Assembly (NCBI GenBank): GCA_963760795.1
Contig: CAVXEP010000007.1
Location: 64,001 to 128,000, forward strand
Direction: 5' to 3'
Source: an uncultured delta proteobacterium
GTDB taxonomy: Bacteria > Desulfobacterota > Binatia > UBA9968
Length of the DNA stretch: 64,000 nucleotides
Shown: positions 33,797-61,718 of the stretch, piece by piece
Layout of the letters: each line of letters starts with the position of its first letter
How positions within the stretch are numbered: position 1 is the stretch's first letter
Made by a program: the position numbers and the translations under genes
Notes under the pieces: model-generated
Told to the model about the DNA's origin: nothing
Seen by the model: only the letters and a program-made list of their open reading frames with translations
Databases searched by the model: none

Positions 33797-33805
33797 GTTC
33801 TGCGG

Positions 33806-44813: not shown

Positions 44814-44899
44814 GGTCCGATTCGTGTTAGGTGATTGGGTGGCAAACTTCAAGATCGCCGATCCAACCCTAGCCGCAACGTTTTTGCTGCTTTTCAGCC

Positions 44900-44977
44900 G
44901 TAGGATGGGTGGAGCGTTAGCGATACCCATCATTCTGAACGGTGGGTATCGGCGCTTTGCGCCTCCACCCACCCGAC
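44900..44977. repeat. GTAG-type REP doublet
   Basis: GTAGGATGGGTGGAGCGTTAGCGATACCCATC ... GGTGGGTATCGGCGCTTTGCGCCTCCACCCACCCGAC. Confidence 0.8.
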
Positions 44978-45029
44978 AATTCACTCGAAGTGCGCTTACT
45001 TTGATATCCCGCAGCCTGACTGTGGCATA

Positions 45030-45320
45030 TCATTTGACGACGTGGGTCAGAAAGTGGCCGCCGTCGCTCTTGACCGTCTGATACTTTGACGTCGCCTCGC
45101 GCATGGCGTTATGCACCGGCGTGCCCCGATGCTGGGTATGCGCCTCGACGCTGTCCCACTCGATCATCAAGATCACCCGGCTCGGATCTTCGACGCTGGT
45201 AAAAAACTTGATGCCATGGGAACCGGCGAAGTTGGCTTTCTTGAGAATGTCGGCAAAAACTTGGACATACTCGTCGCGCTTTTCCGGTTGGACCTGCTGA
45301 ATGAGGATTTCTTGGATCAT
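45030..45320 (-). CDS. Antibiotic biosynthesis monooxygenase (ABM) domain protein
   Basis: 96 aa; SVEDPSRVILMIEWDSVEAH; AGGAG RBS. Confidence 0.85.
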   Translation of the reverse strand: MIQEILIQQVQPEKRDEYVQVFADILKKANFAGSHGIKFFTSVEDPSRVILMIEWDSVEAHTQHRGTPVHNAMREATSKYQTVKSDGGHFLTHVVK

Positions 45321-45417
45321 GTTATTCTCCTGTTCAAATAGTTCAAATCGTTCAGTACCGCCTCAATTGCTGATGCTAACGTCATGACCCATAAATAGGT
45401 TTATTGAGCTGCTCAGG

Positions 45418-45454
45418 TTTCCCCCTTTGAAAAAGGCGGACTGAGGGGGATTTT
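45418..45454. repeat. CCCCCTTT-N-AAAGGGGG family arm
   Basis: TTCCCCCTTTGAAAAAGGCGGACTGAGGGGGATTT, similar to 46681-46714. Confidence 0.75.
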
Positions 45455-45637
45455 CCCTTATCCCCTTTCCAAAGCTGATCATGCGACGCATCTTGTTGGC
45501 TGGACACGGAGCTGCGGCGCCGGTGGCTCGGCAGGGTCAGACAGTGAAAATAGATCGACGCATGGAAGATCCTGTTGCGGCGAATCCTATGAGATCGGCC
45601 AGCCTTGTGTCAACGCGCGCAGCCGCGCTGTAAAAAT

Positions 45638-46825
45638 CTAATTGTCGCCCAGAAGTTCTTTAACTCGTCCGATCAGTTGCGGCGGCTGATCGATTACTTC
45701 CCGCGCCAAGGCTTGCAGTTCTTCGCCGCTGACTTGTTCCAAGCTCCAGTTACGTTTTCTTGCTTCTTCGATCAGATCGGGGTCTTTCAACGCGCGCGCG
45801 TAGGCTTCGCGCAGAATCTTCACACGCTCGGCGGGCGTTGCCGGCGGCGCGACGGCGGGATATTGGCCGAAATGATCGGCGCCGAGCAGCACCGCCGCTA
45901 GACGCTGTTTGGCTTCGGGCGTTTGATGGCGCGTCATCAGTTCGTAGATTGTCGGCACATCGGCGAGTTTTGGGTTACGCTTGCGCCCGCTCTGTACCAG
46001 GATGCGGACGAAGCCATTTTTCTGCCAACTGATAAACGGTTCGCGGGCGAGGAAAGACGCCGAGGACACCGAACGGCATTGCACTTCGCCTCTCTCGATG
46101 GCGAGGTCTTGATCGCTGCCGCTCTTGTAACCGGTGACGATGCGAAACTTCGCGCCCAGCGCATCTTCCAAAACTTTGAGGCTGATATGTCCGCTCGACC
46201 CCGGAGCCGTGGCGGAACATTTGGGCGGCTCGCCGGCAGTGCGAATATTTTCTATCGATTTGTACGGCGCATCGGCGCGCATCATCAACAGCGCCTCAAC
46301 CAGGCCCGCCGAGCCGATCCAGCTGAACTTGCGCCAATCGAACTGGACTTCGCGCCGGCCGGTGAGCTGCTGAAAATAAAGACTCGCCGAGATTTGGCCG
46401 AGGGTAAGGCCGTCCGGTTTGGCGACGCTGTAGAGATAATTGGCCGAGATCATCGAACCGCCGCCGGCCATATTCTGCGCCACGATGTTCGGGTTCCCTG
46501 GAATATATTTCACCAGATTGCGCGCCAGGGCGCGCGCCCAAAGATCGTTGGCATCGCCGGCCGCCATGTTGACGATGAACGTCATGGTCTTGCCTCGATA
46601 GAAATCGCTTTGAGCTGATGCGGGGATGTTTGCGAAAAGCACCATTGCGGCGCAGCTGAGAAGCCAAGCGAGCAGTCCCATCCCCCTTTGGAAAAGGGGG
46701 ACTAAGGGGGATTTGTTTTTGCGTGCGTGGGAAAGTTCCGCCTGTGAAAATCCCCCTATAGAAAATCCCCCCATACCCCCCTTTTTCAAAGGGGGGAACT
46801 GCCAAGCATAGATCGAGCTGATCAT
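45638..46825 (-). CDS. TctC/Bug family SBP; start ambiguous because of a repeat at the 5' end
   Basis: FYRGKTMTFIV, QNMAGGGS, AKPDGLT, TGYKSGSDQDLAIERGE. Confidence 0.88.
   Translation of the reverse strand: MISSIYAWQFPPLKKGGMGGFSIGGFSQAELSHARKNKSPLVPLFQRGMGLLAWLLSCAAMVLFANIPASAQSDFYRGKTMTFIVNMAAGDANDLWARALARNLVKYIPGNPNIVAQNMAGGGSMISANYLYSVAKPDGLTLGQISASLYFQQLTGRREVQFDWRKFSWIGSAGLVEALLMMRADAPYKSIENIRTAGEPPKCSATAPGSSGHISLKVLEDALGAKFRIVTGYKSGSDQDLAIERGEVQCRSVSSASFLAREPFISWQKNGFVRILVQSGRKRNPKLADVPTIYELMTRHQTPEAKQRLAAVLLGADHFGQYPAVAPPATPAERVKILREAYARALKDPDLIEEARKRNWSLEQVSGEELQALAREVIDQPPQLIGRVKELLGDN
46681..46798. repeat. CCCCCTTT-N-AAAGGGGG family inverted doublet
   Basis: TCCCCCTTTGGAAAAGGGGGACTAAGGGGGATTT ... 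AAATCCCCCCATACCCCCCTTTTTCAAAGGGGGGA. Confidence 0.85.
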
Positions 46826-46852
46826 TATACGTTCGCGGTAGAGGTCGTTTCA

Positions 46853-47579
46853 GTCTAAAAGGTAACGCGGGCCAGCTGGCCAACAGCTTGCCGAATCCGC
46901 GCAGCGGGTGTTTCAATCCAAGCTTGGACAGCATGTACCAATTCATCGCCGGATTGCTCGCGACGACCGGCAGATTCAATTCGCGCTCCATCTGTTCAAG
47001 ACACTCCATCGGATCGAGCACCGCACCTTGGAAATAGATCGCGTCCACTTGGCGCTGCTCGCTGATCGCCCGGCGCGCGTAGGCGATGACATCGTCGGGG
47101 GTCATTTTGAGCGCGTCGGTGTAGTGCGGCAAAGTTTCGCCAGGGGAAATGGCAACCAGGTCGAATCGGCCGAGAAAGTCGCGAATCAGTCGATTCAACG
47201 ATGGATCGAACGGCGTGAGCAGGAGAATCCGTTTGGCGGCAAAAGTTGTCAGCGCCGCCGCCGAGGCGCGCAATGCCGTGGCGACGGGAATTTTGAGCGC
47301 CGCGGCAAAGGCGTCAGACAAATTAGGATTCAACACTTCGCGCGGCGCGCCGGGGAATATCAAGCCGTTTAGCTTCTGCTTGTCGGCGAACTGCACGGCG
47401 CGGCTGACGATCAAATCCAGTTTGCCCTGGACGTCATTCAAGACACCGTCGTGCAGCACCAGCTGCTCGTAAAGGACTTCGACGTTGGCCGGCACCAAGT
47501 TGAGAAACTTTTTAATATGCGAGCTCGACTGCGCGCTGGGTCCGAGCCAGCCGATTCTTGGGTTGTGATTGTCAGACAT
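46853..47579 (-). CDS. Asp/Glu racemase superfamily protein (maleate isomerase / arylmalonate decarboxylase / EutA-like); 3' end approximate
   Basis: RIGWLGPS, KIPVATA, RILLLTPF, LEQMERELNLPVVASNPAMNW, GFGKLL; the stop appears lost to an indel. Confidence 0.8.
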
Positions 47580-47726
47580 CGGCCACTCCATTCGACGATT
47601 CTACTGCGCCGGCGTAGATTTAACTCCGCCGCGATCAGACTGCTTTCCCTATAGAGTAGAATCCGCCGCGCGATTGCCGCCGCACCATTGTCCGTAAGTA
47701 GCCGCGCTCAATGAGAAAAATCCATC

Positions 47727-47841
47727 TCACCACGAAGGACACGAAGAGCACGAAGTTCAGAGAATTAATTCTCCAAACCTTCGTGTCCTTCGTGACCTTC
47801 GTGGTAAAAACTCTCTCCCATTTGGTTGCGGCTGTGCCGCG
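47727..47841. repeat. CACGAAG-family palindromic element with conserved tail
   Basis: TCACCACGAAGGACACGAAGAGCACGAAG ... CTTCGTGTCCTTCGTGACCTTCGTGGT-AAAAACTCTCTCCCATTTGGTTGCGGCTGTGCCGCG. Confidence 0.9.
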
Positions 47842-47870
47842 ATTAGGGATTTGGCGGTTCGTTACTTTTT

Positions 47871-48973
47871 TTACGCCTGGCCCCAGACTTTAACGGCGGT
47901 ATCGACTACCAACTTGAGCTTTTGCCACTGCTGCTCCTCCGTCAACAGATTGCCCTCCATCGTCGAGGCGAAGCCGCATTGCGGACTGAGCGCGAGATTC
48001 TCCAACGGCACGTACTTGGCGGCTTGGTCGATGCGCCGGGCCAGTTGGTCCGCCGACTCCATGGCCGCCAGCTTGCTGCTCACCAGGCCGAGAACCACGC
48101 TCTTGCCGCCCGGCATGAAGCGCAGCGGTTCGAATGTCCCGGCGCGCTCGGACTCGTACTCGAGCAGAAACGTGTCGACCTGCAACTGGCCAAACAGTTT
48201 CTCGGCGATGGCGTCGTAGCCGCCCTCGGCGTACCACTGGCTGCGGTTGTTGCCGCGGCACAGATGTATCGCCATGATCACCCCCTCGCGCTGCGCTCCC
48301 TCCAGGCAAGCGTTGTCGGCGCGAATCGCTTCGTCAAGCGCCTGCTCGGGATCGAGCCCCATTTCGTCTTTCACGTAGCTGCGCCACTTCGGATCGATGT
48401 AGTAGCTGTAGCGCGGCGCGTCGATTTGGATGTAGCGCGCCCCTTGGGTCGACAAGGCGTCAATCTCGGCCTTGATCACCGGCACGATGTCCCACAGAAA
48501 AGCGGAATGGTTGGGATAGACCTGGTCGCTGATGCCTTTCTTATAATAGATCGCGGGAAACTGATTGGCGGTGGGCAGCGTGACTTTGATGTCGCCAGGC
48601 TGCTGCTGCTTCAAGAAGGCGAACTCATGGTCGGTCAGGCGCCGGGTTTGTTTGATCTTGCCGACAACCGTGCCGGGCACCATCGAGGGACGGGACGATG
48701 CGCCGGCTGCCGTTTGCCAAGTGCGCGGCACCGCCACCCCTTCGTCGATTCCTTCCACGGCTTCGTTGAAATCGCTCATGAAGTTGCCGCGGCGCAGCTC
48801 GCCGTCGGTAAAGATCTTGAAACCGAGCTCCTTCTGCTTCTCGATCACTCGCAGGATGTGCTGTCCTCGAGCGCGCGCAGCTCTGTGCCGCCGACATTCG
48901 CGCTGCGTGCCTGCAATAGCTCCGCGGGCCGAAGCAAACTGCCAATGTGATCGGCGCGATACTGGGTTGCCAT
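47871..48973 (-). CDS. Cobalamin-independent methionine synthase II family (single-barrel MetE-like) Zn protein, frameshifted near the N-terminus
   Basis: MATQYRADHIGSLLRP, TDGELRR, YIQIDAP, Zn ligands HLCRGN, LEY and SPQCGF. Confidence 0.88.
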
Positions 48974-49064
48974 AATACCTCCTTAAGAGCCGCTTAATTG
49001 ATCCCTGTCGATGCCTTTCCGCTTTCGCGGGAAAGACACCGGTAACTAAACAAATGGTTCTCTC

Positions 49065-50078
49065 TTAACCAGTGATTGGCTCACTCTCTAATGACAAACC
49101 CGCCACAGTTGCCAACGCTCTCTGGGTATAAACCTTGGCCATGCGCTTACGATACCAATAGTCCAGATCGGCGTTGTCGAGGGGATGGGAAATCTTCGCC
49201 GCGGCATCGGCGACGGCGTCAATCAACTCCTTGGTGACTTTCTTGCCCTGAAGCAAGGTCAAGGCTTCGGTCACAACCTTTGGCGCCGAGGCGACCGCCG
49301 TCAGTACCACGCGCGCATCGCGGCATTCACCCCGATCATCGATGTCCAGGGTCGCCGCCACTCCCAGGATCGGAAAGTCGAAGGAGCCGCGCCGGCGCAG
49401 CTTCATGTAGATGTTGCGCCAGCCCAACACTTGCCGCGGGATGAGCAAACCTTTTAGCACTTCATCGTTAGCCTTGGTCGAATAGTCGATACCGTCATCG
49501 CGGTATAGCTCTTCGAGGTTGACCCGCCGCTCGCCTTTTGGACCGACTAGGACCGCTTCCGCTCCCAAGCTCACCAGCACTGGCGCGGTATCCGATGACG
49601 CGATCGCCAGGCACTTGGCGCTGCCGGGAGCGACCAAACAAATATCGCCGTCTTTCTTAATGCAGAAGCCGGCCGCCTGACGCCAGAAAAAAGTTTGGTC
49701 GTAATAGTTGCAGCGAGTGTCGACAAGAACGTTACCGCCGATGGTGCCCATGTTGCGTAGTTGCGGTGTGGAAACCGATACCGCCGCGTGGGCGAGGGCG
49801 GGAAAATGTTTTGCGATCAGGCGATGATGCGCAATCGCCGTAAGGCTTTCGCCGGCGCCGATCCATAGGCCTGCTTGGCTCTGGCGAATGCCTTTAAGCT
49901 CACGCAGCGATCGGAGCGAAATGAGATGACGCGGCGTGAATTGCCCGCGCTTCATTTTCGGATAGACGTCCGTGCCGCCGGCCACGAGCATCGCGTCCGG
50001 GCCAAATTCAGACAACATCTTCGTTGCTTGGCGCAACGTCCGTGGTTGAAGGTAATTAAATTCTGGTAGTCGAAGCAT
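49065..50078 (-). CDS. hcrB: 4-hydroxybenzoyl-CoA reductase beta subunit-like FAD/[4Fe-4S] protein
   Basis: AGGTD, RNMGTIGGN; four-Cys insert RCNYYDQTFFWRQAAGFCIKKDGDICLVAPGSAKC typical of HcrB; KLRRRGSFDFP. Confidence 0.8.
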   Translation of the reverse strand: MLRLPEFNYLQPRTLRQATKMLSEFGPDAMLVAGGTDVYPKMKRGQFTPRHLISLRSLRELKGIRQSQAGLWIGAGESLTAIAHHRLIAKHFPALAHAAVSVSTPQLRNMGTIGGNVLVDTRCNYYDQTFFWRQAAGFCIKKDGDICLVAPGSAKCLAIASSDTAPVLVSLGAEAVLVGPKGERRVNLEELYRDDGIDYSTKANDEVLKGLLIPRQVLGWRNIYMKLRRRGSFDFPILGVAATLDIDDRGECRDARVVLTAVASAPKVVTEALTLLQGKKVTKELIDAVADAAAKISHPLDNADLDYWYRKRMAKVYTQRALATVAGLSLESEPITG

Positions 50079-50096
50079 GGTATCTCGATACCTGCA

Positions 50097-50179
50097 CCCT
50101 CACCCTTCCCTCTCCCTCGATTACGAGGGCGAGGGTAAGACTTTTCCCCTCTCCCGTTGGCAGAGGGCTAGGGTGAGGG
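50097..50179. repeat. CCCTCACCC...GGGTGAGGG palindromic element inside the hcr-like cluster
   Basis: CCCTCACCCTTCCCTCTCCC...GAGGGCGAGGG...CCCCTCTCCC...GAGGGCTAGGGTGAGGG. Confidence 0.85.
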
Positions 50180-50196
50180 AATTCTGTGACATAATT

Positions 50197-52573
50197 TCAA
50201 CTCTTCTGGGTTACTTCCACACCATCGCCCGGATGCCACTTGATCGGCGCGGGAAATTTAAAGTCGGGAATCGAAGTCGCTTTCAGCCGGCCGTCGAGGG
50301 CGCGCAGGATCTTGTCCGGCGTGATCGGCACTTCATGGATGCGCACGCCGATGGCGTCATAGAGCGCATTGGCAACCGCGGGAACCACCGGCAGGAGCGG
50401 ACCCTGGCCGGCTTCCTTGGCGCCGTAGGGGCCTTCGGGATCGATGGTCTCGACCAAAATCGTTTCAATCTCCGGCGTCTCCAACGTCGTCGGACTTTTG
50501 TATTCCAGAATCGACGGAATTTTATGCAGACCGTTTTTGCGGAAGATCTGCTCTTCCATCAGCGCCTCGCCGAGAGCCATGTAAACACTGCCTTCGGTTT
50601 GACCTTCGACGAGCAGCGGATTGAAGGCGCGGCCACAGTCGTGGGCGATCCAAATTTTATCGATTTTAATCTCGCCGGTGGCGCTGTCGCAGTGCAGCTC
50701 GACGATAGAAGAAGTAAAACTATAGGCCGGCGTGGGGCCGACGCCCGAGCCTTTGAAGTCGCGCGGGTTCTTGGGCGGCCAATAGCTGCCCGTGGCGCCC
50801 AGCGCGCCGTGTTTGCTCTCCGCCTTGACTACGGCATCGGCAAAGCTTATGCCGCGCTCCCGCAGGCTTGCGCTGCGAACTTTGCCTTCGGCAAATTCGA
50901 GATCATCCGGCGGAACCTCCAACGCTTCGCTCGCCGCTTCGAGGAGCAGGGGCTTGAGCTTGGCGCAAGCCTGAATCGCTGCGTTTCCGGTCATTACGGT
51001 CACGCGGCTGGAATAGCTGCCGAGATCCACCGGCGTGAGATCGGTATCGGCGGTCAACACCCGGATGTCGCCGGGGTCGATGCCGAACTCTTCGGCCACG
51101 GCGTAAGCCAGAATGGAATCCGATCCCTGGCCGATGTCGATGGAGCCGCAAAAAACCGCGACGCCGCCGCTGCGGTCGAGCTTAATCTGCACGCCGGAGT
51201 GAGGCATGTTGTTCCAATAAATCGGCAATCCCGCGCCGCTGATGTAGGAGCTCGCCGCGAAGCCGACGCCGTGGCCGAACGGCAGCTGGCGAAATTTTTT
51301 CTTCCACTCGGCGCGCTCGGCGACGCGTTCGGTGCATTCGCGTAGCCCCGTGCTGCTGACGCGCAAACCGTTCACCGTGATGCTGTTGGGCTTGACGAGC
51401 TGTTTGAGCCGCAACTCGATCGGGTCGAGGTTGAGTTTCTCGGCGATTTCATCGAGCTGAATCTCCAGCGCGAAGCGCGGCTGCGGCGTGCCGTGGCCAC
51501 GCTTCGGTCCGCAGGCCGGCTTATTGGTAAAAACTCGCACGCCCTCGAACTTATAAGCCGGCACTTCGTAAGTCACCGTCTGCAGCGCGCCGGTATAATA
51601 GACCGAAGCCAAGCCGTAGCTGCTGTAGCCGCCGCCGTCGAGATAGGTTTTATACTGCATCGCCTGGATCGTGCCGTCGTTCTTCACGCCGGTCTTGGCG
51701 AACATCTTGACCGGGTGGCGGCCGCGATGGACGTAAAACGTTTCCTCCCGTGTGAGCGTGATCTTCACCGGCCGTCTGGTGATCATCGAGAGTTTGGCCG
51801 CGCAGATCTCGTGCGAAAAAGGATCGCTCTTGCCGCCGAAGCCGCCGCCGACCGGAGTTGCGACAACGCGTATTCTGCTCGCGGGTAATCCCAGAACTTT
51901 CGCCAAGGTGCGATGGACATAATGCGGCGTCTGCGTCGAAGACCACAACGTGAGCTTGTCATCGGGGCCGTAGAAGGCCACCGCGGCGTATTGCTCCATC
52001 GGTAGATGAGTATTGCCCTGGTAGAAAAATGTCCCCTCTAAAACAAAATCTGAGCCGGCGAAGCCGCCGTCGACGTCGCCGAATTCGAACGACACGGCCT
52101 TTTGAATGTTGGCGTGACGGTTCCAGGTATGAATCCGTTCGCTCTCTTCGGTGCAAGCCAGCGCTTCTTCGATGGAAAGAATCGGTTTCAGGACCTCGTA
52201 CTCGACGTCAATGCAAGCCGAGCGCTTTTTCGGCTATACTCTCGCTCGCCGCAGCCACTGCCGCCACCGGATCGCCGGCGTAACGGACTTTGTCAATCGC
52301 CAGCGCCTCTTCGTCTTCGGTCGAAGGCATGATGCCGAATTTTTGCGGCAGGTCCGCTCCGGTGAGCACGGCGAACACACCGTCGAGTTTGACTGCCCGC
52401 GCGATATTGACGCCAAGCACCCGCGCGTGCGGGTGGGGACTGCGCAAAAGTTTGGCATACAGGGTGCGCGGCAGATTGAGATCGTCGGCGAAGACGGTGG
52501 TGCCGGCGCATTTCGCCATGGCGTCGATCTTGCGCAGCGGCTTGCCGATTACCGACAGAGTCTGCTTTTTCAT
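50197..52573 (-). CDS. hcrA: 4-hydroxybenzoyl-CoA reductase alpha subunit-like molybdoprotein (xanthine oxidase family), indels near 52100-52210
   Basis: LRSPHPHA, KVRYAGDPVAAV, GGGFGGK, KRGHGTPQ, DIGQGS, DLGSYSSRVT, GPYGAKEAGQGP; start overlaps the hcrC stop. Confidence 0.78.
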
Positions 52574-53085
52574 TTGCTTATTTCCTGAGCCGCGAGCTCC
52601 ACCGCTTGCAAGATTTTCGTGTAGCCGGTGCAGCGGCAGAGATTTCCCGACAAGGCTTGGCGGATTTCCTGCCGCGTCGGATGCGGATTGGCGTTCAACA
52701 ACGCCTTGGCCGTGAGCAGGATTCCAGGGATGCAATAACCGCACTGGGCCGCACCCAAGTCGGCAAAGGCGGTTTGCAGCGGATGGGGTTTGCCATCTTG
52801 CATCAATCCCTCAACGCTGGTGATCTCGGCGTCGACTGCTTCAATGCCGAGCATCAGACAGGAAAGCACCGGCTGGCCGTCAACCAGCACGGCGCAAGTG
52901 CCGCACTCGCCGACTTCGCACCCATGTTTGGTGCCGGTCAGCCCCAGATCTTCGCGCAGAACTTCCAATAGAGTCTTGTTGATTTCCGTGGCGGTCTCGT
53001 GCAGCTCGCCATTGACACGCAGCCGAAGAAGGATCTTGCCGGCAGGCTGATGATCGCGGGGCTTTTTTCTCGGTGGCATGTTCAC
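52570..53085 (-). CDS. hcrC: 2x[2Fe-2S] small subunit (HcrC/CoxS-like)
   Basis: GTKHGCEVGECGTC...SC; AQCGYCIPG; GNLCRCTGY. Confidence 0.82.
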   Translation of the reverse strand: MNMPPRKKPRDHQPAGKILLRLRVNGELHETATEINKTLLEVLREDLGLTGTKHGCEVGECGTCAVLVDGQPVLSCLMLGIEAVDAEITSVEGLMQDGKPHPLQTAFADLGAAQCGYCIPGILLTAKALLNANPHPTRQEIRQALSGNLCRCTGYTKILQAVELAAQEISK

Positions 53086-53091
53086 GGCGAT

Positions 53092-54366
53092 CTACAGTTT
53101 GAAAAACCGTCTGGCTTTAAGTTCAAATCGCGGCAATGTTCCCGGCGCGACCAAGTCAACATCGGCGCGCAGCCCGATGCGCTGGCGCAACCGCTGGGAA
53201 ATTTCCTGGCGCAAGGCGTCGCCGGTGCCGTGAAGCACGCTTGGCTCGACCACCAGCCTGATCTCGCGCATCGCTTCGCGTTCGAAGACTTCGACGCGAA
53301 ACTCCTCGATCTCGGCGAACTCACGGATGACGTTTTCCACCGCGCTGGGAAACACGTTGACGCCGCGCACCACGACCATATCATCGACCCGCCCAAGCAC
53401 GCCACCTTGCAAGAGCAGGAATGGCCGGCCGCATGGACAGGATGCATAACTCGGTTCAACCAGATCGCCGGTGCGGTAGCGGATGACCGGGCTGCCGATC
53501 CTGCCCAGGTTGGTGAGCACGAGCTCGCCCTGGTCATTTTCATCCACGGGGGCAAGGCTGACGGGATCGACAACTTCGGCGATGAATTCATTCTCGTTGA
53601 CGTGGACGCCGCCGGTCTGGAACTCGCACTGAAATCCGAAGGCGCCGACCTCGGTGGCGCCCGGGTGGTCGAAGCAGCGTGCGCCCCAGGATTCTTCGAT
53701 AATTTTTCGCGTGCTCGGAATGCTCGCTCCAGGCTCGCCGGCGTGAATGGCGATTCTGACGGCGGAATTTTTGGCTAGATCTATGCCAGCTTTTTTCGCT
53801 TCCGCCGCCAGATGGAGCGCGTAGGTCGGCGTGCAGACCAATACGGTCGCGCCGTAATCGACCATCGATTTCAGCCGCTGCGCGGTCGACTGCGCGCCAC
53901 CGGAAATCGCCAGCGCGCCGATTTTTCGCGCGCCTTCCCAGCCAGCCCAGAAGCCGATGAACGGGCCGAACGAGAAAGCGAAATAAATACGATCGTGAGC
54001 GCCAACTCCCGCGGCAGCAAAAATTGTTTTCCAGCACTCGGCCCACCAATTCCACGACTGTTCGGTATCGAGCCAGTACAAGGGTTTGCCGGTGGTTCCT
54101 GAAGTCTGGTGGATGCGGATGTAATCTTGCTGGGCAAAGGTCAGATCGCTGCCAAAGGGCGCATGGCGCTGCTGGTCCTCGACCAACTCGCTCTTGGTTG
54201 TAAACGGCAGCTCGCGCAAGGACGCCAGCGAATCAATATTTTCAACATTGGCCTGGGCAAACTTGCCGCGATAGAATTGATTCGCTGGCAAAAGCCTGTC
54301 GAGCATTTCGCCCAGCCGCGCAAGCTGCTGTTGCTCTAGGTGTTCGCGGCTCGAAGAAACATTCAT
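53092..54366 (-). CDS. Phenylacetate-CoA ligase (PaaK) family aryl-CoA ligase
   Basis: LPFTTKSEL, HQTSGTTGKP, TPTYAL, AGEPG, GATE, RYRTGD, GRVDDMVVVRGVNVFPSAVE. Confidence 0.88.
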   Translation of the reverse strand: MNVSSSREHLEQQQLARLGEMLDRLLPANQFYRGKFAQANVENIDSLASLRELPFTTKSELVEDQQRHAPFGSDLTFAQQDYIRIHQTSGTTGKPLYWLDTEQSWNWWAECWKTIFAAAGVGAHDRIYFAFSFGPFIGFWAGWEGARKIGALAISGGAQSTAQRLKSMVDYGATVLVCTPTYALHLAAEAKKAGIDLAKNSAVRIAIHAGEPGASIPSTRKIIEESWGARCFDHPGATEVGAFGFQCEFQTGGVHVNENEFIAEVVDPVSLAPVDENDQGELVLTNLGRIGSPVIRYRTGDLVEPSYASCPCGRPFLLLQGGVLGRVDDMVVVRGVNVFPSAVENVIREFAEIEEFRVEVFEREAMREIRLVVEPSVLHGTGDALRQEISQRLRQRIGLRADVDLVAPGTLPRFELKARRFFKL

Positions 54367-54378
54367 GGCGATGGCAGA

Positions 54379-55245
54379 CTATGCTTTGCCCGGTTCGATG
54401 ATTTTCCCCGCTGCGAAATCGACGACCACTTCCCAACCGCGCTCGGCGAACAGGCGATGGGTTGCTGCGGCGCCGGGAAGAGCGATGCCCGCTTTGCCGG
54501 CCAATTCCATGGCTCGGCCGGTGCGCTCGGGGCGTAAATTCAAACGATAGCGTTTGTCGCCGAGATTGAAGACGCCGTTGACCAGTTCGTCCAACCGCCA
54601 GCTCTGAGCGCAGCCGGCGGAGGCGGCGCGGGCAAAACTTTGCAGATCCAGACCCATCTTCTCGGCCAGTTGCAATCCTTCGTAAATCGCCAGTTGGGAG
54701 AACGTCTGCATCATCTCGTTGATGATCTTGCCCAGCTGGCCGTTGCCGTTCTTGCCCAGATAGGTGACCGTGCGGCCGATGATCTGCAGCACCGGCAGGC
54801 TCTGCTGGAACGCCTGGTAGCTGCCGCCGACGAATAGAGTCAAGTTGCCGTTGGTCGCGCCGATATCGGCGCCGCTCAGCGGCGAGTCGAGCATCTCGAT
54901 GCCGCCCTGGCGCAAGCTTGACGAGATTCTAACCGCCAGCTCCGCAGCGGTGCTGCTGAGATCGACGAACAAAGGCGCCGGGGTTGCGGCTTTGTCGATG
55001 CCCTGTTTGCCCAGGGCAACTTCCTCGAGGTCGCCGGCTTGGAGCGAAGCGATGACGATGGTCGCATGATCGGCGACTTCGGCGGGGGATCCAGCTTCCA
55101 GCGCACCCTCGCGCAAAAGCGGCAGCATTTTTTCTCGCACCAGATCGAAAACCGTCAAGGGATAGCCGGCGCGCAAAAGGCGCAGGGCGATCGCCCCGCC
55201 CATGTTGCCCAGGCCGATAAAGCCAAGCTGTTCAGGCGTTAGCAT
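54379..55245 (-). CDS. NAD(P)-dependent beta-hydroxyacid dehydrogenase (3-hydroxyisobutyrate dehydrogenase / tartronate semialdehyde reductase family)
   Basis: GFIGLGNMG, VDLSST, LDSPLSG, GNGQLGKIINE. Confidence 0.88.
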   Translation of the reverse strand: MLTPEQLGFIGLGNMGGAIALRLLRAGYPLTVFDLVREKMLPLLREGALEAGSPAEVADHATIVIASLQAGDLEEVALGKQGIDKAATPAPLFVDLSSTAAELAVRISSSLRQGGIEMLDSPLSGADIGATNGNLTLFVGGSYQAFQQSLPVLQIIGRTVTYLGKNGNGQLGKIINEMMQTFSQLAIYEGLQLAEKMGLDLQSFARAASAGCAQSWRLDELVNGVFNLGDKRYRLNLRPERTGRAMELAGKAGIALPGAAATHRLFAERGWEVVVDFAAGKIIEPGKA

Positions 55246-55256
55246 GACGATGCTTT

Positions 55257-56468
55257 CTAACCGAGCTTGGAGATGCTCTCTTGAAGCTCAGGGATGAGAT
55301 CGCGGAGTACCTCGGGAACTTTGTCGATGTCATATTCCTGCAGGCCGATTTCCAGATCGATGCTGGCGAGTTGTGTTTCTAACACGCCTTTGGGCCGCTT
55401 GCCGTTGGCCACCGCGGCGATGCCTTCGCGCAGCATTTTGCGCAGGAGCAAGATGGCGCGGTCGCCGTAGCCGGGATGTTCGAGGGTGCGATCGACGATC
55501 GCGCCCTGGCTTTCGACCATGGCTTTGTCTTCCAGCGGAATATTGCCGCGGATCTCGCCGTAGAATCTACGGTCGTAGGGTTTGCGCTCTCGCTGCTTGG
55601 CCTTTTCGACGTAGCCGCCGTGATAACTTTTCTGCTCGGGCGCTTTGGAATAGACGGTGAGGCGCATCTCCTCGCAGTGGGTATCGTCGATGGGCAGAAG
55701 CCAAATCGCCTGCTGGATCGGCTGCTCAAGTCCGCCGCCTTCGTCCCAGGGTTCGCGCGACTTGCGGTTGATGTTGGGAAGCACGGTACAACGCCGGCGC
55801 ACTTGTACCCTGTTGGGCGTCGCGCCGGGCGAGACGATGTAGATCGTCACGCCGTAGTCGCTCTCCACGGCTTTAAAGATCGGACATTGTTTATAGATGC
55901 CGTGGAGATAAGTCATGTGCGTGGTGTCGGTGGTGTTCTCCGCGCCCTGAAGCCAATTGCAGCTGTAGCCTTTGCCGAGCCGGGTGTCGCCCCGTTCGGC
56001 GACGCGATGGCCATCCATCACCAAGACATCGTAGCGCGGCAGCGGCGGCGGATTGGTTTTTTCCGGTCCCATGTAGGCAAAGACAAAGCCGCCCAACTCC
56101 TCGACCGGATACCAGGGATGGCGAATGTTGGGCGCGCTCTTGATCGGTTCGGCGGGGCGGTCGACGATGTTGCCCTTCCGGTCGTAACACCAGCCATGAT
56201 AGGCGCAACGAATGCCGTGATTTTCAATGATGCCGTACTCCAAAGAAGCTCTTCGATGAGCGCACTGGCGTCCGAGCAGGGTTAGAGAGCCGGAGAGATC
56301 GCGAAACAGCACCAGCTGTTCACCCAGGGCGTCGACCGGCACCGGAATGTCTTTGACTTCGTCGGAGAGCGCCACCGGCCACCAAAATTGGCGCAAATAG
56401 TTGCCGCCGAGACTTCCCGGCCCGACCTTCACGATGTCGTCCCAACTGAGATCGCTCGCTGTGGTCAT
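55257..56468 (-). CDS. Rieske non-heme iron oxygenase (phthalate 4,5-dioxygenase/LigX-like)
   Basis: VGPGSLGGNYLRQFW, CAHR...CAYHGW, ENTTDTTHMTYLH, EDKAMVESQG, EHPGYGDRA. Confidence 0.9.
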   Translation of the reverse strand: MTTASDLSWDDIVKVGPGSLGGNYLRQFWWPVALSDEVKDIPVPVDALGEQLVLFRDLSGSLTLLGRQCAHRRASLEYGIIENHGIRCAYHGWCYDRKGNIVDRPAEPIKSAPNIRHPWYPVEELGGFVFAYMGPEKTNPPPLPRYDVLVMDGHRVAERGDTRLGKGYSCNWLQGAENTTDTTHMTYLHGIYKQCPIFKAVESDYGVTIYIVSPGATPNRVQVRRRCTVLPNINRKSREPWDEGGGLEQPIQQAIWLLPIDDTHCEEMRLTVYSKAPEQKSYHGGYVEKAKQRERKPYDRRFYGEIRGNIPLEDKAMVESQGAIVDRTLEHPGYGDRAILLLRKMLREGIAAVANGKRPKGVLETQLASIDLEIGLQEYDIDKVPEVLRDLIPELQESISKLG

Positions 56469-56596
56469 CTATTTTTACCTCCGTTCATAATCCACCGTGG
56501 CACACGAAGATTTTGCAGAACTCTTTCCCATTTTGTTGCGGCTCTGCTGCGCCAGGCTCGTTGTGATTAATTCGTTTTCCGCTGTTCCACGGCGGT

Positions 56597-57580
56597 TTAG
56601 CGATACAGCTGTTGAAAAAACCCTTCCCGTTCGAGATTGCGCAAGATCGTGTCGTCGTAAAATTCTTCCGGCTTGGCCGTTTTGGCGCGGGGCTCGTCGG
56701 ACAGGCTTTCCAACGCCAGGCGAATGCCGTTAAGGGTCGGATAGGGAATGCGCGGCATCTTGGGCGCGAACAGATTGTAGGTTTCGTCGAGAATTCCTTG
56801 ATCCTGAACCCGCAGGTACTTTCCCATCACGCGCTTGGTAAACGCACCATCGGTCTTGTAGCGGTGCAGGCCTTCGGCATAGCCCATGAGAAATCGGCGC
56901 GCCATGTCCGGCTGGGTCTGGAGAAAACGGTCGGTGACGGTCACGTTGGAATTGGGAAACTCGAGGCCGATGTCGGAGAAATCCACCAGCTCTTTGAATC
57001 CCTTTCTGATCGCTGCGGCCGTGGTCGGGTAAGATAGTACGCCGCCGTGAATCGCGCCGGTCTGGAGCGCGACGAAGATCCCCTGGGCCTCGCCGAACTG
57101 GAGAAAAGTAACATCGCGATCCGCAATGTTGTGCTTTTTCAAAAGATAACGCATGCCGAAGTCGGTATTGCTGCCGAAGCGCGAGATGCCCAGACGTTTG
57201 CCTTTCAAGTCGGTCATGCTGCGAATGTCGGTCTGAGTAATCATCGACAGCGCGAGAGTATTAAAAGCCACCGCGATGATTTTTATTTCCGCGCCGCGCA
57301 GCCGGGCGCCCAACGGCGCGGCGCCGCCCACCTGGCCAATCTTGATATCGCCGCCGACCAGGGCCTGGACCATCTTGGTGCCGGTGCTGATGTAGATCAG
57401 ATCCACATCGAGACCGTGGCGCTGAAACGCGCCCGCCTCCTTGGCGAGCCAAAGCACGGCTTGGGTTCCCGACAGAGAGCTGTAGGCCGCGACCAATTTC
57501 TGCCCGCTCTGCGCCGCGACTAGCCTAGCGCAGCCGATTACGACAAGCAGGAAAATGCTGGCGCAACGGAAGGGTGTCAT
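56597..57580 (-). CDS. NitT/TauT ABC SBP
   Basis: Signal peptide, WLAKEAGAFQRHGLDV, LKGKRLGISRFGS, ALQTGAI. Confidence 0.9.
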   Translation of the reverse strand: MTPFRCASIFLLVVIGCARLVAAQSGQKLVAAYSSLSGTQAVLWLAKEAGAFQRHGLDVDLIYISTGTKMVQALVGGDIKIGQVGGAAPLGARLRGAEIKIIAVAFNTLALSMITQTDIRSMTDLKGKRLGISRFGSNTDFGMRYLLKKHNIADRDVTFLQFGEAQGIFVALQTGAIHGGVLSYPTTAAAIRKGFKELVDFSDIGLEFPNSNVTVTDRFLQTQPDMARRFLMGYAEGLHRYKTDGAFTKRVMGKYLRVQDQGILDETYNLFAPKMPRIPYPTLNGIRLALESLSDEPRAKTAKPEEFYDDTILRNLEREGFFQQLYR

Positions 57581-57589
57581 TTCGCTCCG

Positions 57590-57619
57590 ACTCTACGCGA
57601 GCGGCAAAGTTCAAGTCAA
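57590..57619 (-). promoter_or_regulatory. Candidate sigma70 promoter for the SBP-Rieske-hcr run
   Basis: TTGACT-N18-TAGAGT ending about 10 nt before the SBP ATG. Confidence 0.3.
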
Positions 57620-57680
57620 GGAAGTGACCAGCGTGAGTTTGCCTTGACAAGCACAACCGTGCATAGGAGATTTGCCTGCC

Positions 57681-58655
57681 ATGGCCAAGATCGTTTTAGG
57701 ACTGGCGACCTCGCACAGCCCGATGCTGTGCGTGCCGTCGAACCAGTGGGTGACGAGCTACGGTGCCAAGGATCAGCATGATCCGAGCTTGCCGCACTAC
57801 CCCGAGCTGCACCGGCAAAATTCCGCGCGGCTCGTGGCAGAGATAACCGCTGAAAAATGTCAGGAGCGGTTCGCCCTGGTGCAGGGAGCCATGGACCGGA
57901 TGGCGAAAACCTTGCAACGAATCTCCCCGGACGCCGTGATCGTCATCGGCGACGATCATCACGAAATGTTTCCCGAAGATCACATGCCCGCGGTCAACGT
58001 CTATTGGGGCGACAAGTATTTAAATTCCCCCGCGGACATGGAAAGGATTCCACCCTTTCGCCGCGCCGGCATGTGGGCCTATCATCCGCAGGAGCCGGAG
58101 TGGTATCCCTGCGACGCCGAGCTGGGACTGCGGTTGATCGAGTCGCTGATCGAGCAACAGTTCGATATCGCGCACTCGCGCGCGGTGTCGTCGGATCGCG
58201 GCATCGGCCATGCGTTTAACTTCATCGTGCGCCGCTTCATGTCGGCGATCGAACCGATCCCGCTGGTGCCGATTTTTCTCAATACCTATTTCCCGCCGAC
58301 CCAACCCACCGTGCGGCGCTGCTACGCGTTCGGCATGGCGCTGCGGCAAGCGGTGGAAAGTTGGGATGCCGACAAGACCGTTGCCGTGGTCGCTTCTGGT
58401 GGCTTGTCCCACTTCGTCATCGATGAAGCGATGGACCGCGCCCTGCTCGCCGCCATGGCGCAAAAAGATCGGGCCGCGCTCTGCCGCTGGCCGGAGCAAA
58501 TCTTTCAGTCGGGCACCTCGGAGATCAAGACCTGGATGGTTCTTGCCGGCGCCATGGAACAGACCGCGCTCCAAATGGGCTTGATCGATTACGTTACCTG
58601 CTACCGCTCGCTGGCCGGCACCGGCGTCGGCGCCGGATTCGCCGAGTGGGTGTGA
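57681..58655 (+). CDS. Class III extradiol ring-cleavage dioxygenase (LigB family)
   Basis: MAKIVLGLATSHSPML, IGDDHHE, GHAF, NTYFPP, SGGLSHF, SGTSEIKTW. Confidence 0.88.
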   Translation: MAKIVLGLATSHSPMLCVPSNQWVTSYGAKDQHDPSLPHYPELHRQNSARLVAEITAEKCQERFALVQGAMDRMAKTLQRISPDAVIVIGDDHHEMFPEDHMPAVNVYWGDKYLNSPADMERIPPFRRAGMWAYHPQEPEWYPCDAELGLRLIESLIEQQFDIAHSRAVSSDRGIGHAFNFIVRRFMSAIEPIPLVPIFLNTYFPPTQPTVRRCYAFGMALRQAVESWDADKTVAVVASGGLSHFVIDEAMDRALLAAMAQKDRAALCRWPEQIFQSGTSEIKTWMVLAGAMEQTALQMGLIDYVTCYRSLAGTGVGAGFAEWV

Positions 58656-58814
58656 TTGAGCCATCGGCGTCGCGTCGCATTCGAAAATTTTTCGCCGAGT
58701 CTGAGCACACTTCATGCCGCCAGAAGTTTTTTAATCGCTGTAACCGAGATAGAACTGCAAGGCGATCCATCCGAAGCCCGCACAAGACAGGCGAGTGCTT
58801 GACGCTACTCAGCC

Positions 58815-58842
58815 TTGCCCTGGTCATTCGCCTTGTTATAAC
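58815..58842 (+). promoter_or_regulatory. Candidate sigma70 promoter with extended -10 for the ABC operon
   Basis: TTGCCC-N16-TATAAC with TG-n directly before the -10 box. Confidence 0.35.
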
Positions 58843-58873
58843 CTGCCCCTCTCAAGCTATAGTCGGGAAACCC

Positions 58874-59680
58874 ATGGCGGCATTAACCAAGATCGAAATT
58901 CGCGATGTCGAGCATGTCTACCAAAGCGACTTCGCAACCGTCCCGGCATTGGCGAGCGTGAGTCTTACGGTCGGCGACGGCGAATTTGTCGCGCTGTTGG
59001 GGCCAAGCGGCTGCGGCAAGTCCTCGCTGTTACGCATCGTCGCGGAGCTGTTGCGACCGACGGCCGGCTCCGTGCAAATTTTTTCTTCAAGCGGTTTAGT
59101 TCAACAAGGCAACGGCCGGCCAAAAACCGCGCTGGTGTTTCAAGAGTATGCGCTATTTCCCTGGCGCACGGTCCTCGATAATGTCACCTTCCCGCTGGAG
59201 ATGCGCGGCATGACCCGTCATGACGGTCTGACTCGGGCAGGCGCGGTGTTGGCGCGCGTAGGGCTGCAACCGTTCGCCGGCGCTTACCCGCATCAGCTCT
59301 CAGGCGGCATGCGTCAGCGCGTCGGCATCGCCCGCGCCCTGGCGGCCGAGCCTGAGGTGCTGCTGATGGATGAACCGTTCGGCGCGCTCGATGCGCAGAC
59401 CCGCACGGTGCTGCAAGAAGAACTGCTGCGGGTGTGGGAAAGCGAGCGCAAAACCGTTCTCTACGTTACCCACAGCATCGACGAAGCCGTCTATCTGGCC
59501 GACCGCATCGTGCTCCTGACGGCGCGCCCTGGGCGGATCAAAGCCGAGTATGCGGTAGAGTTGCCGCGCCCGCGCCATATGGAGATGCGCGGTTGGAGTA
59601 CCTACACGAAGTTGTCGTTGGAAATTTGGCACGCGCTCAAAGACGAAGTGGATATGGCGTTGGCTTCGGAAGTGCCATGA
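58874..59680 (+). CDS. NitT/TauT ABC transporter ATP-binding protein
   Basis: GPSGCGKSS, VFQEYALFPW, LSGGMRQR, LLMDEPFGALDAQTR, VTHSIDEA. Confidence 0.93.
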   Translation: MAALTKIEIRDVEHVYQSDFATVPALASVSLTVGDGEFVALLGPSGCGKSSLLRIVAELLRPTAGSVQIFSSSGLVQQGNGRPKTALVFQEYALFPWRTVLDNVTFPLEMRGMTRHDGLTRAGAVLARVGLQPFAGAYPHQLSGGMRQRVGIARALAAEPEVLLMDEPFGALDAQTRTVLQEELLRVWESERKTVLYVTHSIDEAVYLADRIVLLTARPGRIKAEYAVELPRPRHMEMRGWSTYTKLSLEIWHALKDEVDMALASEVP

Positions 59681-59716
59681 CTCGCGCAAGTAATGGCAAC
59701 AGGGCGGTGGTGCGGC

Positions 59717-59950
59717 CTTTGCGAACTTCGCGTGCCTGGCGCGAACCAAATCCGAATCCGGAGAAGAAATTTTCTCGCAAAGGCGCAAAGACGCCAAGGT
59801 AAGATTCGGATTTTTTCGGGGTCGGTTCGATCCCTAAACTTTGCGCCTTGGCGTCTTGGCGAGAGTAATATCCGAATTCCGAGAAGAATTATCTCGCGCA
59901 AAGCATTTCCTGAGCACCGTCGAAGGGAGCGCAATGGACGCCAAGCTCGG
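59717..59950. repeat. CGCAAAG/CGCCAAG-family multi-arm element between ATPase and permease
   Basis: CTTTGCGAACTTCGCGTGCCTGGCGCG; CTCGCAAAGGCGCAAAGACGCCAAG ... CTTTGCGCCTTGGCGTCTTGGCGAG; CTCGCGCAAAGC...GGACGCCAAG. Confidence 0.85.
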
Positions 59951-59956
59951 AGAGTA

Positions 59957-60748
59957 ATGATGTCTTCTGGCCTTTTATCTCGCGAGGTCACTATTCCGCT
60001 GGCGACTTCGCTTGCCATGCTCGCCGCTTGGGAAACCCTGGTCCACGCCGGCTTGCTGCGCGCCGCCTTCTTTCCGGCGCCGACGCACATCGCTCACACC
60101 CTTTTCAGCTTGGCCTTGAGTGGCGAGTTGTGGCTTCATATTGCGACGACGTTAGCGCGTCTGATTGCCTCGTTCCTGATGGCAGTGATACCCGGCACGG
60201 CGCTCGGCCTGGCGATGGGCTGGTGGCTCGAGATGCGCCTGGCAGCCGATCCGCTCGTGCGGCTCTTGTTTCCGATCCCGAGCATCGCTTTTTTCCCGGT
60301 GGTGATTTTCTATTTCGGTCTGAGCGAATGGGGCTTGCTTCTGACCGCCGCGATCACGCCGTTTCTCTTGATCACGGTGCAGGCCGCCGCGGCCGTCGAG
60401 GGATTGGAGCGGACGCTCTTGGAAGCAGGGCGGAATTATGGCGCCACCGGACGGCGGCTGTTCATGCGCGTGATACTGCCGGCGGCGCTGCCGCAGCTGT
60501 TCATCGGTTACCGCCTCGCTCTAGGAGTCGGCTTCATCGTCACCGTGGCGGTGGAAATGATCGCGGCTAAACATGGACTAGGCGGTTTTCTCTGGCACTC
60601 CTGGCAGATCCTGCGCATCGAGGAAATGTATGTCGGTCTGGCGCTGATCGGGCTGCTCGGAATTGTCGTAACCTACGGATTGGCAGCGCTCGCGGACCGC
60701 TTAATGCCGTGGCAAGTCGATTTGTTACGCTCGAAGGGACAGCGGTAA
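59957..60748 (+). CDS. NitT/TauT ABC transporter permease
   Basis: WETLV...FFPAP, LFPIPSIAFFP, LLEAGRNYGA, VILPAALP, VAVEMI. Confidence 0.9.
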   Translation: MMSSGLLSREVTIPLATSLAMLAAWETLVHAGLLRAAFFPAPTHIAHTLFSLALSGELWLHIATTLARLIASFLMAVIPGTALGLAMGWWLEMRLAADPLVRLLFPIPSIAFFPVVIFYFGLSEWGLLLTAAITPFLLITVQAAAAVEGLERTLLEAGRNYGATGRRLFMRVILPAALPQLFIGYRLALGVGFIVTVAVEMIAAKHGLGGFLWHSWQILRIEEMYVGLALIGLLGIVVTYGLAALADRLMPWQVDLLRSKGQR

Positions 60749-61524: not shown

Positions 61525-61544
61525 GGCTGGCAAAAGGCGGCAAG

Positions 61545-61680: not shown

Positions 61681-61718
61681 GCGTCTTGACGCGAGGAATA
61701 ATTTGAGGAGGAAAACAT

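Follow-up and report, generated by a model that had tools for sequence, protein, structure and literature searches.

Only two xanthine oxidase family members are described as reductive, 4-hydroxybenzoyl-CoA reductase (Hcr or 4-HBCR) and the urolithin C dehydroxylase Ucdh, and both are described as acting para to a carbonyl group (PMC11760930; bioRxiv 10.1101/2025.01.17.632430). The Hcr of Thauera aromatica (HcrCAB; PDB 1RM6/1SB3) is composed of three subunits encoded in the order C-A-B, and its FAD subunit contains an insert, a loop with four cysteines; this [4Fe-4S] loop is described as peculiar to 4-HBCR and as absent from the FAD subunit of Ucd (PMC11760930; bioRxiv 10.1101/2025.01.17.632430). 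UcdCFO/Ucdh is the urolithin C 9-dehydroxylase of the strict gut anaerobe Enterocloster bolteae and is described as dehydroxylating phenols that are not CoA-bound and have an electron-withdrawing group in the para position, with 32.7% identity to 4-HBCR by its authors' figure (PMC11760930; bioRxiv 10.1101/2025.01.17.632430). The hmf genes of Cupriavidus basilensis are described as an aerobic set of CoA ligase, Mo enzyme, and UbiD decarboxylase (PMC3223595), and the isophthalate-CoA ligase of Syntrophorhabdus aromaticivorans as a PaaK-family enzyme that activates a ring carboxylate and whose gene lies beside UbiD-family genes (PMC9516798). The locus considered here encodes an Hcr-like enzyme within a run of eight genes (47871-57580) in a window of 64 kb, that is, the whole stretch of DNA analyzed, on contig C7 (64001-128000) of a 6.58-Mb assembly (35 contigs, 88.9% complete). 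The genome is of the Binatia type and from soil, and the region around the run is densely packed with aromatic-acid genes. Its best reading, which we consider somewhat probable, is a module of a CoA ligase and a dehydroxylating aryl-CoA reductase lying beside an unrelated aerobic oxygenase module.

Two modules within one gene run

For domain calls, the 59 long open reading frames (ORFs) of the window were scanned with Pfam or NCBIfam models. The eight genes are all on the minus strand, in the order and at the positions given by the initial annotation. The run begins with an NMT1/SsuA-type solute-binding protein (SBP; 56597-57580; Pfam NMT1; TIGR01728 at 92.8 bits against a cut-off of 163.5), followed by a Rieske oxygenase alpha subunit (55257-56468; Rieske and LigXa_C) and a beta-hydroxyacid dehydrogenase-like gene (54379-55245; NAD_binding_2 and NAD_binding_11), the last two being called module A here. 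Module B follows with a PaaK-like aryl-carboxylate CoA ligase of 424 amino acids (53092-54366; AMP-binding and AMP-binding_C_2), an hcrC-like [2Fe-2S] small subunit of 171 amino acids (52570-53085; Fer2 and Fer2_2), a frameshifted hcrA-like molybdopterin large subunit (50197-52573; Hammerhead, then MoCoBD_1 and MoCoBD_2 in the other frame), and an hcrB-like FAD subunit of 337 amino acids (49065-50078; FAD_binding_5 and CO_deh_flav_C). A frameshifted MetE-like gene with the catalytic domain of cobalamin-independent methionine synthase closes the run (47871-48973; Meth_synt_2). The intergenic gaps from the SBP through the MetE-like gene are 128, 11, 12, 6, -4, 118, and 91 bp, the negative value being the overlap of the hcrC-like stop with the hcrA ATG; the core spacings reported earlier (gaps of 11, 12, and 6 bp, then an overlap of 4 bp) were thus recovered unchanged on re-measurement.

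The initial annotation had joined these genes into a hybrid pathway of oxygenation, oxidation, CoA activation, and dehydroxylation or hydroxylation, with synteny in relatives as one of its checks. The relatives compared are 40 genomes of the order (41 including this genome), of which 26, among them the unpublished genome G004, have an hcrA orthologue of 75-93% identity: 12 of 24 in the genus (three being contig-end pieces only), three of five in family f2, and all 11 in family f3. Proteins 80-93% identical to the hcrA product have 'Candidatus Binatia bacterium' and 'Deltaproteobacteria bacterium' among their source names, and for this reason the organism is treated here as Binatia-type. Neighborhoods were compared at 20 of the 26 orthologue-bearing loci, with thresholds of 45% identity and 60% cover. 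The order ligase-hcrC-hcrA-hcrB is complete in 15 loci, and two more end before hcrB, so it holds in 17 of 18 assessable loci over three families; two loci end where the ligase would lie, and one (L028) lacks a ligase within 6 kb. Rieske, dehydrogenase, SBP, LigB, MetE-like, arylmalonate-decarboxylase-like, and second Rieske genes were found beside the module in none of the 20 relatives' loci, so that only the ligase and hcrCAB are fixed, and the steps from oxygenation to dehydroxylation do not form a conserved pathway. For the hybrid part, this is the outcome that the initial annotation had named as refuting it. At three loci of the same genus (L021, L022, and L029), the ABC transporter found at 58646 and beyond in the window starts right beyond paaK, and relative to these this genome has an extra block of four genes (54379-58655), namely those for LigB, the SBP, the Rieske protein, and the dehydrogenase.

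Module A has a distribution of its own. Orthologues of the Rieske protein, 65-72% identical, occur in nine of the 40 relatives, with a second copy on contig C13 of this genome. Four of the nine also have the hcr module, and the two are linked in none of them, being on different contigs or 3.7 Mb apart. The Rieske gene followed by the dehydrogenase gene is kept as a pair in six of the seven loci read, away from hcr, and the SBP was found beside neither the hcr module nor the Rieske pair in the relatives' loci examined. We therefore lean toward reading the run as two separately inherited catabolic modules placed side by side, a local juxtaposition; tight spacing alone was no sign of a pathway in this window.

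Among solved structures, the Rieske protein is closest to proteins of the phthalate-dioxygenase type (7fhr, 9ina, and 7fjl; 124-132 bits), with matches confined to residues 10-192, the N-terminal half; its Rieske domain is above the Pfam cut-off, and LigXa_C scores 29.6 against 27. Module A would be an ordinary O2-dependent unit of a phthalate-dioxygenase-like Rieske oxygenase and a beta-hydroxyacid-type dehydrogenase, grouped here with the SBP, the ABC transporter, and a ring-cleaving dioxygenase of the LigB type. A hybrid pathway in this strain alone, in which the Rieske oxygenase, dehydrogenase, ligase, and Hcr-like enzyme would be co-transcribed and act in succession on one aromatic acid, draws on the spacings, which are too narrow for any promoter or terminator from the Rieske gene to hcrA, and on a G+C content that is even across the region (0.57-0.60), with no step at the junction of the Rieske pair and the ligase. 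Both modules may also plausibly act on benzene-carboxylates, the Rieske protein being phthalate-dioxygenase-like and PaaK-type ligases being able to take isophthalate. Such a pathway is nevertheless highly improbable, given the absence of the arrangement from all 20 relatives' loci, the lack of linkage in the four genomes that have both modules, and the position of paaK directly by the ABC transporter at the same-genus loci. In addition, a cis-diol-forming oxygenase followed by reductive dehydroxylation would be chemically circular, and a promoter and terminator scan of 47500-58000 gave results no better than shuffles (5 vs. 3.1±1.9 and 14 vs. 13.1±4.4). Six RNA runs contained only 5-18% of the query words.

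Beyond hcrB, UbiD-family genes are found 3' of the module in seven of ten f1/f2 loci, the other three ending there, and an ordinary AMP-binding ligase is present in three f1/f2 loci. The ten f3 loci compared, all from one genus, have formyltransferase-like and dynamin-like genes flanking the module. In the window, a frameshifted UbiD-family decarboxylase gene lies 9 kb from the module on the minus strand (38622-40056; UbiD_N and UbiD, the C-terminal domain in another frame) and shares a protein cluster with the module-near UbiD genes of L011, L012, and L018. Close orthologues of the module-flanking UbiD and AMP-ligase genes were not found in this genome, the best being 42-48% identical and on other contigs. 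The MetE-like gene (PRK06520 at 253.7 bits against a cut-off of 313; PDB 1ypx at 213 bits) adjoins the module only here and in L051, an unclassified metagenome-assembled genome (MAG) in which positions 95-6600 comprise hcrC, hcrA, hcrB, a MetE-like gene 65% identical to the window's, and a PaaK-like ligase.

The Hcr-like enzyme and its sister clades

All domains of the xanthine oxidase/dehydrogenase family (Fer2/Fer2_2, hammerhead, MoCoBD_1/2, FAD_binding_5, and CO_deh_flav_C) are above the Pfam cut-offs in the trio, which shares with Thauera HcrCAB the three subunits and the gene order. The Thauera enzyme is the best solved match for the alpha subunit (1rm6_A, 502 bits; next 221) and the beta subunit (1rm6_B, 173 bits; next 107), and Hcr is the top NCBIfam model for both. 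The curated Hcr cut-offs are missed by all three subunits, so the names hcrC, hcrA, and hcrB given by the initial annotation stand for a resemblance: alpha scores 112.4 and 681.7 bits in two pieces with TIGR03194 (817 for the intact orthologue P0002; cut-off 994.55), beta 261.1 bits with TIGR03195 (cut-off 404.55), and gamma 175.6 bits with TIGR03193 (cut-off 257.8), the Hcr model ranking third for gamma behind glyceraldehyde dehydrogenase gamma (188.8) and XdhC (180.2). The hcrB product has approximately 40 extra residues in FAD_binding_5, in which C123, C139, C147, and C156 align with the four cysteines of 1rm6_B, giving the same inserted loop as in the Thauera FAD subunit. These four cysteines are kept in 84 of 84 hcrB sequences, comprising 66 from outside the order, 17 from Binatia loci, and the window's own.

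Among the 50 nearest 50%-identity cluster representatives to P0002, only P0141 passes the Hcr alpha cut-off. This canonical Hcr control scores 1301.7 bits with TIGR03194 and 1017 bits with 1rm6_A, and is 40% identical to P0002. The trees, which are quick or FastTree searches, place the Binatia protein in a 15-row clade with P0141 (support 98), not as its sister, in a set of 56 rows, and place P0141 outside a 105-row clade (support 100) containing the window enzyme in a set of 114 rows. With three cut-offs missed and a place outside the canonical clade, the sequence comparison supports a Mo enzyme other than a canonical Hcr, as the initial annotation had supposed. The enzyme also differs from canonical Hcr in its partner, a PaaK-type and not a benzoate-type ligase, and in its host, which has oxidases and in which no benzoyl-CoA reductase was found.

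The ligase can be assigned by its scores to the PaaK superfamily only, as it is below both the PaaK equivalog TIGR02155 (226.6 bits against a cut-off of 646.3) and the haloarchaeal model (260 against 700), and its nearest solved relatives are near-equal: a Bacteroides thetaiotaomicron PaaK-like protein (198 bits), 2-hydroxyisobutyryl-CoA synthetase (197), and PaaK2 (178). The isophthalate-CoA ligase sets a precedent for a PaaK-type ligase, paired with UbiD, acting on a benzene-carboxylate. The S. aromaticivorans cluster of isophthalate-CoA ligase and UbiD-type isophthalyl-CoA decarboxylase resembles the module, by description only, in its PaaK-family ligase near UbiD genes; unlike the module, it is not reported to include a Mo enzyme.

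A scan of species genomes gave 80 loci outside the order that are 50-59% identical to the query's first sequence, in Acidobacteriota, Methylomirabilota/Rokubacteria, Gemmatimonadota, Planctomycetota, Chloroflexota, Myxococcota (among them Chondromyces apiculatus DSM 436), Actinomycetota, and others. Many of the contigs are short; hcrC is present in 72 of the 80 loci and hcrB in 66, and a PaaK-like ligase of at least 50% identity is present in nine, one of which (L052) falls inside the Binatia clade. In the 114-row tree, a 68-row clade (support 95) is made up of a Rokubacteria-type group, the Binatia group (22 rows, support 100), and an Acidobacteria/Gemmatimonadota/Planctomycetota group (35 rows, two with box genes). 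By its sequence, then, the enzyme is placed in a large uncharacterized clade that is sister to the canonical reductase and occurs across aerobic soil phyla.

The genes boxC and boxB follow the trio in ten of the 80 loci (L046, L047, L049, L050, L066, L075, L044, L058, L062, and L095), which come from Rokubacteria/Methylomirabilota and a few further phyla, and they lie directly after hcrB in eight of the nine loci of the Rokubacteria/Methylomirabilota group. A benzoate-CoA ligase is present in six of the 80 loci and in four of the ten with box genes (L049, L050, L066, and L075), and a PaaK-like ligase 53% identical to the window's in five of the ten (L046, L047, L049, L066, and L075); on one strand, L075 reads hcrCA, hcrB, boxC, boxB, benzoate-CoA ligase, and PaaK-like ligase. 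At the outside loci, the models exceed their cut-offs: BoxB scores 744 bits against 499 and BoxC 928 against 712, with hits in L058 and L050, while the family model for benzoate-CoA ligase reaches 696 against 375. Since flanks of at least 5 kb are available on one side in 59 of the 80 loci and on both sides in 28, the box linkage is a lower bound. The coupling of an Hcr-type enzyme with O2-dependent enzymes, as proposed in the initial annotation, is therefore supported in sister clades, where the partner is the boxC/boxB pair and not a Rieske oxygenase. Full-text literature searches found no paper describing hcr and box genes together. No neighbor beyond the trio is common across the 80 loci, the next being a MocA-like cytidylyltransferase (7-8 loci) and boxB (7-10 loci). 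In Acidobacteriota and one Planctomycetes MAG (L073, L076, L095, and relatives), the Hcr-like trio adjoins panB, panC, panD, and folK.

A free phenolic, and not a CoA thioester, would be the substrate if the enzyme worked like the gut urolithin C dehydroxylase, a reading that is very improbable. Ucdh is, as proposed here for the window enzyme, a xanthine-oxidase-family member that acts reductively on a phenol para to a carbonyl, its description indicates that the family can dehydroxylate non-CoA phenols with a para electron-withdrawing group, and 71 of the 80 loci outside the order have no PaaK-like ligase beside the trio. Within the order, however, the ligase is fixed by hcrC in 17 of 18 loci, and the descriptions of Ucd set it apart by its non-thioester substrate, its lack of the [4Fe-4S] loop, its strict gut anaerobe host, and its low identity to 4-HBCR.

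Frameshifts and surroundings of the run

The hcrA gene is read in two frames, with the N-terminal 121 codons at 52211-52573 and the remaining 632 codons at 50197-52095, and a TGA follows the shift; intact orthologues are 789-791 amino acids long. The MetE-like gene is frameshifted approximately 35 codons past its true ATG at 48973, its N-terminus being in another frame. The initial annotation had placed both genes correctly and overlooked the frameshifts, of which there are three within 14 kb when that of UbiD is counted. In hcrA, one surplus base near 52217 sets the gene apart from seven of seven aligned relatives (one row being the unpublished G004), and the base is missing from the contigs of four of four soil or sediment metagenome runs from four studies, the site falling at 52217 or 52220. 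Apart from it, hcrA is 91-93% identical to intact orthologues and has no other stops. The runs with near-identical DNA are soil or sediment metagenomes by label.

Split genes occur elsewhere in the assembly. Both 2-oxoacid:acceptor oxidoreductase alpha genes, on other contigs, are split between frames, as is a xanthine dehydrogenase (XDH) paralogue on contig C9 (47708-49769), and one benzoate-CoA ligase lacks its first approximately 146 profile positions. The affected sites beyond the run and the UbiD gene are at 33399-34703 of the window and at C32:253513-255229, C24:13783-15550, C9:47708-49769, and C22:195951-197042. As the base is absent from the seven relatives and the four runs and split genes occur elsewhere in the assembly, the one-base break in hcrA is quite probably an assembly indel error, part of assembly-wide indel noise. 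Two points weigh against this: the metagenome contigs differ from the window by 13-18 positions per 484-991 bases over the site and are thus strain-level relatives that may not be the same strain, and rpoB and three COX1 genes of the genome are intact, which leaves room for a true pseudogene. A module that is dead in this strain, with a real insertion in hcrA and with hcrA and perhaps the MetE-like and UbiD genes decaying, would fit those intact genes, the clustering of three frameshifts, and the lack of close orthologues of the module-flanking UbiD and AMP-ligase genes. It is unlikely, because split genes also affect unrelated and probably needed genes on other contigs, which fits indel noise, and because hcrA is otherwise so close to intact orthologues and free of further stops.

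As the initial annotation had noted, the scans of the window found no benzoyl-CoA reductase, box, or ferredoxin genes; the ferredoxin motif CxxCxxCxxxCP occurs once in the window, within a 22-codon frame. Divergent from the run, on the plus strand, are a LigB-type extradiol dioxygenase (57672-58655; Pfam LigB) and an ABC transporter with an ATPase, two permeases, and an SBP (58646-62723; ABC_tran and BPD_transp_1). The window also contains a second Rieske/LigXa_C oxygenase, an arylmalonate-decarboxylase-like gene, TctC receptors, and a second LigB-type dioxygenase (43622-47591 and 63110-63937), together with a KstD-like flavoprotein (35112-36737) and several NMT1-type SBPs. In one ORF, an SBP runs into the first part of a glycine-reductase B domain, which likewise looks like the result of indel error.

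Predicted function in an oxygen-respiring host

In the proposed mechanism, the PaaK-like ligase of module B would convert an aromatic acid that is carboxylated on the ring and probably hydroxylated in the para position into its CoA thioester. Low-potential electrons would enter at the predicted extra [4Fe-4S] cluster of the FAD subunit (hcrB) and would then pass from FAD through the two [2Fe-2S] clusters (hcrC) to the Mo-pterin site (hcrA). There, the ring hydroxyl para to the thioester would be removed as in the Thauera enzyme, giving benzoyl-CoA or a close analogue. The reductive reading draws on the fixed association of ligase and trio, the nearest kinship to the one CoA-dependent reductase of the family, the kept loop, and the box linkage of the clade. 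The 2-oxoacid:acceptor oxidoreductase genes of this genome are a possible electron source, and two of its genes are above the cut-off of the benzoate-CoA-ligase subfamily.

A search of this genome, 88.9% complete, for bcr, bam, and box genes, as the initial annotation had advised, found no full anaerobic benzoyl-CoA pathway. Class I benzoyl-CoA reductase BcrB (TIGR02260) had no match in it, BoxC (TIGR03222) had no tblastn match at E 1e-10, and no BoxB was above the cut-off, the best BoxB-like gene scoring 201-240 bits against 499 (TIGR03225). Three of four aldehyde:ferredoxin oxidoreductase (AFOR) genes, when compared, score 208-220 bits with aldehyde oxidoreductase and 112-133 with BamB, and Bam-like neighbors lie beside none of the four. 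Three AFOR-family genes are found within 26 kb on contig C10 (42000-80000), where genes for MoeA, a MobA-like protein, and an ABC transporter of the tungstate/molybdate type also lie, a cluster that is unusual for a presumed aerobe. A BoxB-like diiron protein of 375 amino acids (240 bits against 499; C21:24556-27340, beside a NuoF-like flavoprotein) was considered as a module-linked benzoyl-CoA consumer and rejected, since its gene is present in 39 of the 41 genomes with or without the module and thus does not co-vary with it. BcrB-like genes of approximately 300 bits, below the cut-off, occur in ten of the 41 genomes, likewise with and without the module, and so show no correlation with it. 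In one congener, G014 (C3:192000-210000), BcrC-like, BcrB-like, single activase, BadH-like, enoyl-CoA hydratase, and acyl-CoA dehydrogenase genes, none of which reaches its equivalog cut-off, adjoin a dimethyl sulfoxide (DMSO) reductase type II set, ethylbenzene-dehydrogenase-like, and may form an ATP-dependent aryl-CoA reductase or dehydratase system.

Several observations weigh against a reductase. Most xanthine oxidase family members are hydroxylases, and both the direction and the substrate assigned to this clade are predictions. All three subunits are below the curated cut-offs, and the canonical P0141 is only 40% identical and outside the clade. The host has three haem-copper oxidase genes, and no known benzoyl-CoA consumer was found in it. 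Unlike the Box clusters of the sister clades, this genome and its 40 relatives have no BoxB above the cut-off (0 of 41 genomes, with L058 as the positive control of the model), and this genome gave no BoxC hit. Of 201 genomes sampled across the phylum, two have a true BoxB accompanied by boxC and benzoate-CoA ligase, both of the same class as this genome, and those two have no Hcr-like neighbor and no orthologue at E 1e-150. Outside the order, the box linkage extends to only ten of the 80 loci, 59 of which have at least 5 kb on one side or more.

In an oxidative role, the Mo enzyme would be an aerobic aryl- or heteroaryl-CoA hydroxylase resembling the 2-furoyl-CoA dehydrogenase HmfABC with its ligase and UbiD. 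HmfABC is a three-subunit Mo enzyme, and the HmfD ligase is of the ordinary AMP-binding type, unlike the PaaK-like ligase of the module. A Mo dehydrogenase combined with a ligase and a decarboxylase of the UbiD type is described as the furoate/hydroxymethylfurfural (HMF) gene set (PMC3223595), to which the module, flanked by UbiD genes in relatives, can be likened by gene-set description only (HmfABC/HmfD/HmfF). A hydroxylase would also suit a host that can respire oxygen, a genome in which no benzoyl-CoA consumer was found, and a clade that inhabits aerobic soil phyla, including Chondromyces apiculatus. We nevertheless regard an oxidative enzyme, which would work in the opposite direction to that proposed for module B, as rather improbable: the nearest characterized enzyme is the reductase by a wide margin (502 vs. 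221 bits), the loop described as peculiar to that reductase is kept in all 84 homologues, and in the sister clades the neighbors are box genes, whose products consume benzoyl-CoA. On plasmids, the best relatives reach only 35-36% identity, and neither of the two loci inspected is an hmf cluster. No hmfE-like gene of the enoyl-CoA hydratase type was found beside the module in the six loci scanned with Pfam, and a literature search found no paper joining 2-furoyl-CoA dehydrogenase with 4-HBCR. The plasmid-borne relatives, found by tblastn with the intact orthologue, are generic XDH, and the two loci (Caballeronia and Shinella) are neither hcr nor hmf.

The reductase reading can be extended to the clade, though only tentatively and with more doubt than confidence. 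The putatively [4Fe-4S]-bearing Hcr-like clade of O2-respiring soil bacteria (Binatia, Rokubacteria/Methylomirabilota, Acidobacteriota, Gemmatimonadota, Planctomycetota, and Myxococcota) may carry out reductive dehydroxylation of hydroxyaryl-CoA without strict anaerobiosis. Where box genes accompany it, the resulting benzoyl-CoA would enter the O2-dependent epoxidase pathway; in Binatia, a PaaK-type ligase and UbiD (de)carboxylases would accompany it, with another benzoyl-CoA consumer. If true, this would be an undescribed reductive-then-oxidative route for lignin monomers of the 4-hydroxybenzoate type and a new entry for lignin-derived phenolic acids in soils.

The module of ligase and Hcr-like enzyme that is conserved in the order falls in an uncharacterized clade. 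The genes of this clade are routinely annotated as 4-HBCR and used as markers of the anaerobic benzoyl-CoA pathway, and high copy numbers of 4-HBCR have been reported in Binatota MAGs (bioRxiv 10.1101/2025.11.25.690425). Large-subunit paralogues of the XDH family number in the dozens in every genome of the order, with at least 30 scored in most and 48 candidates here, and this expansion may be labeled 4-HBCR by annotation pipelines. As the genes of the clade fall below the curated cut-offs, form a separate clade, and occur in oxygen-respiring hosts without benzoyl-CoA reductase, such marker counts may mislead.

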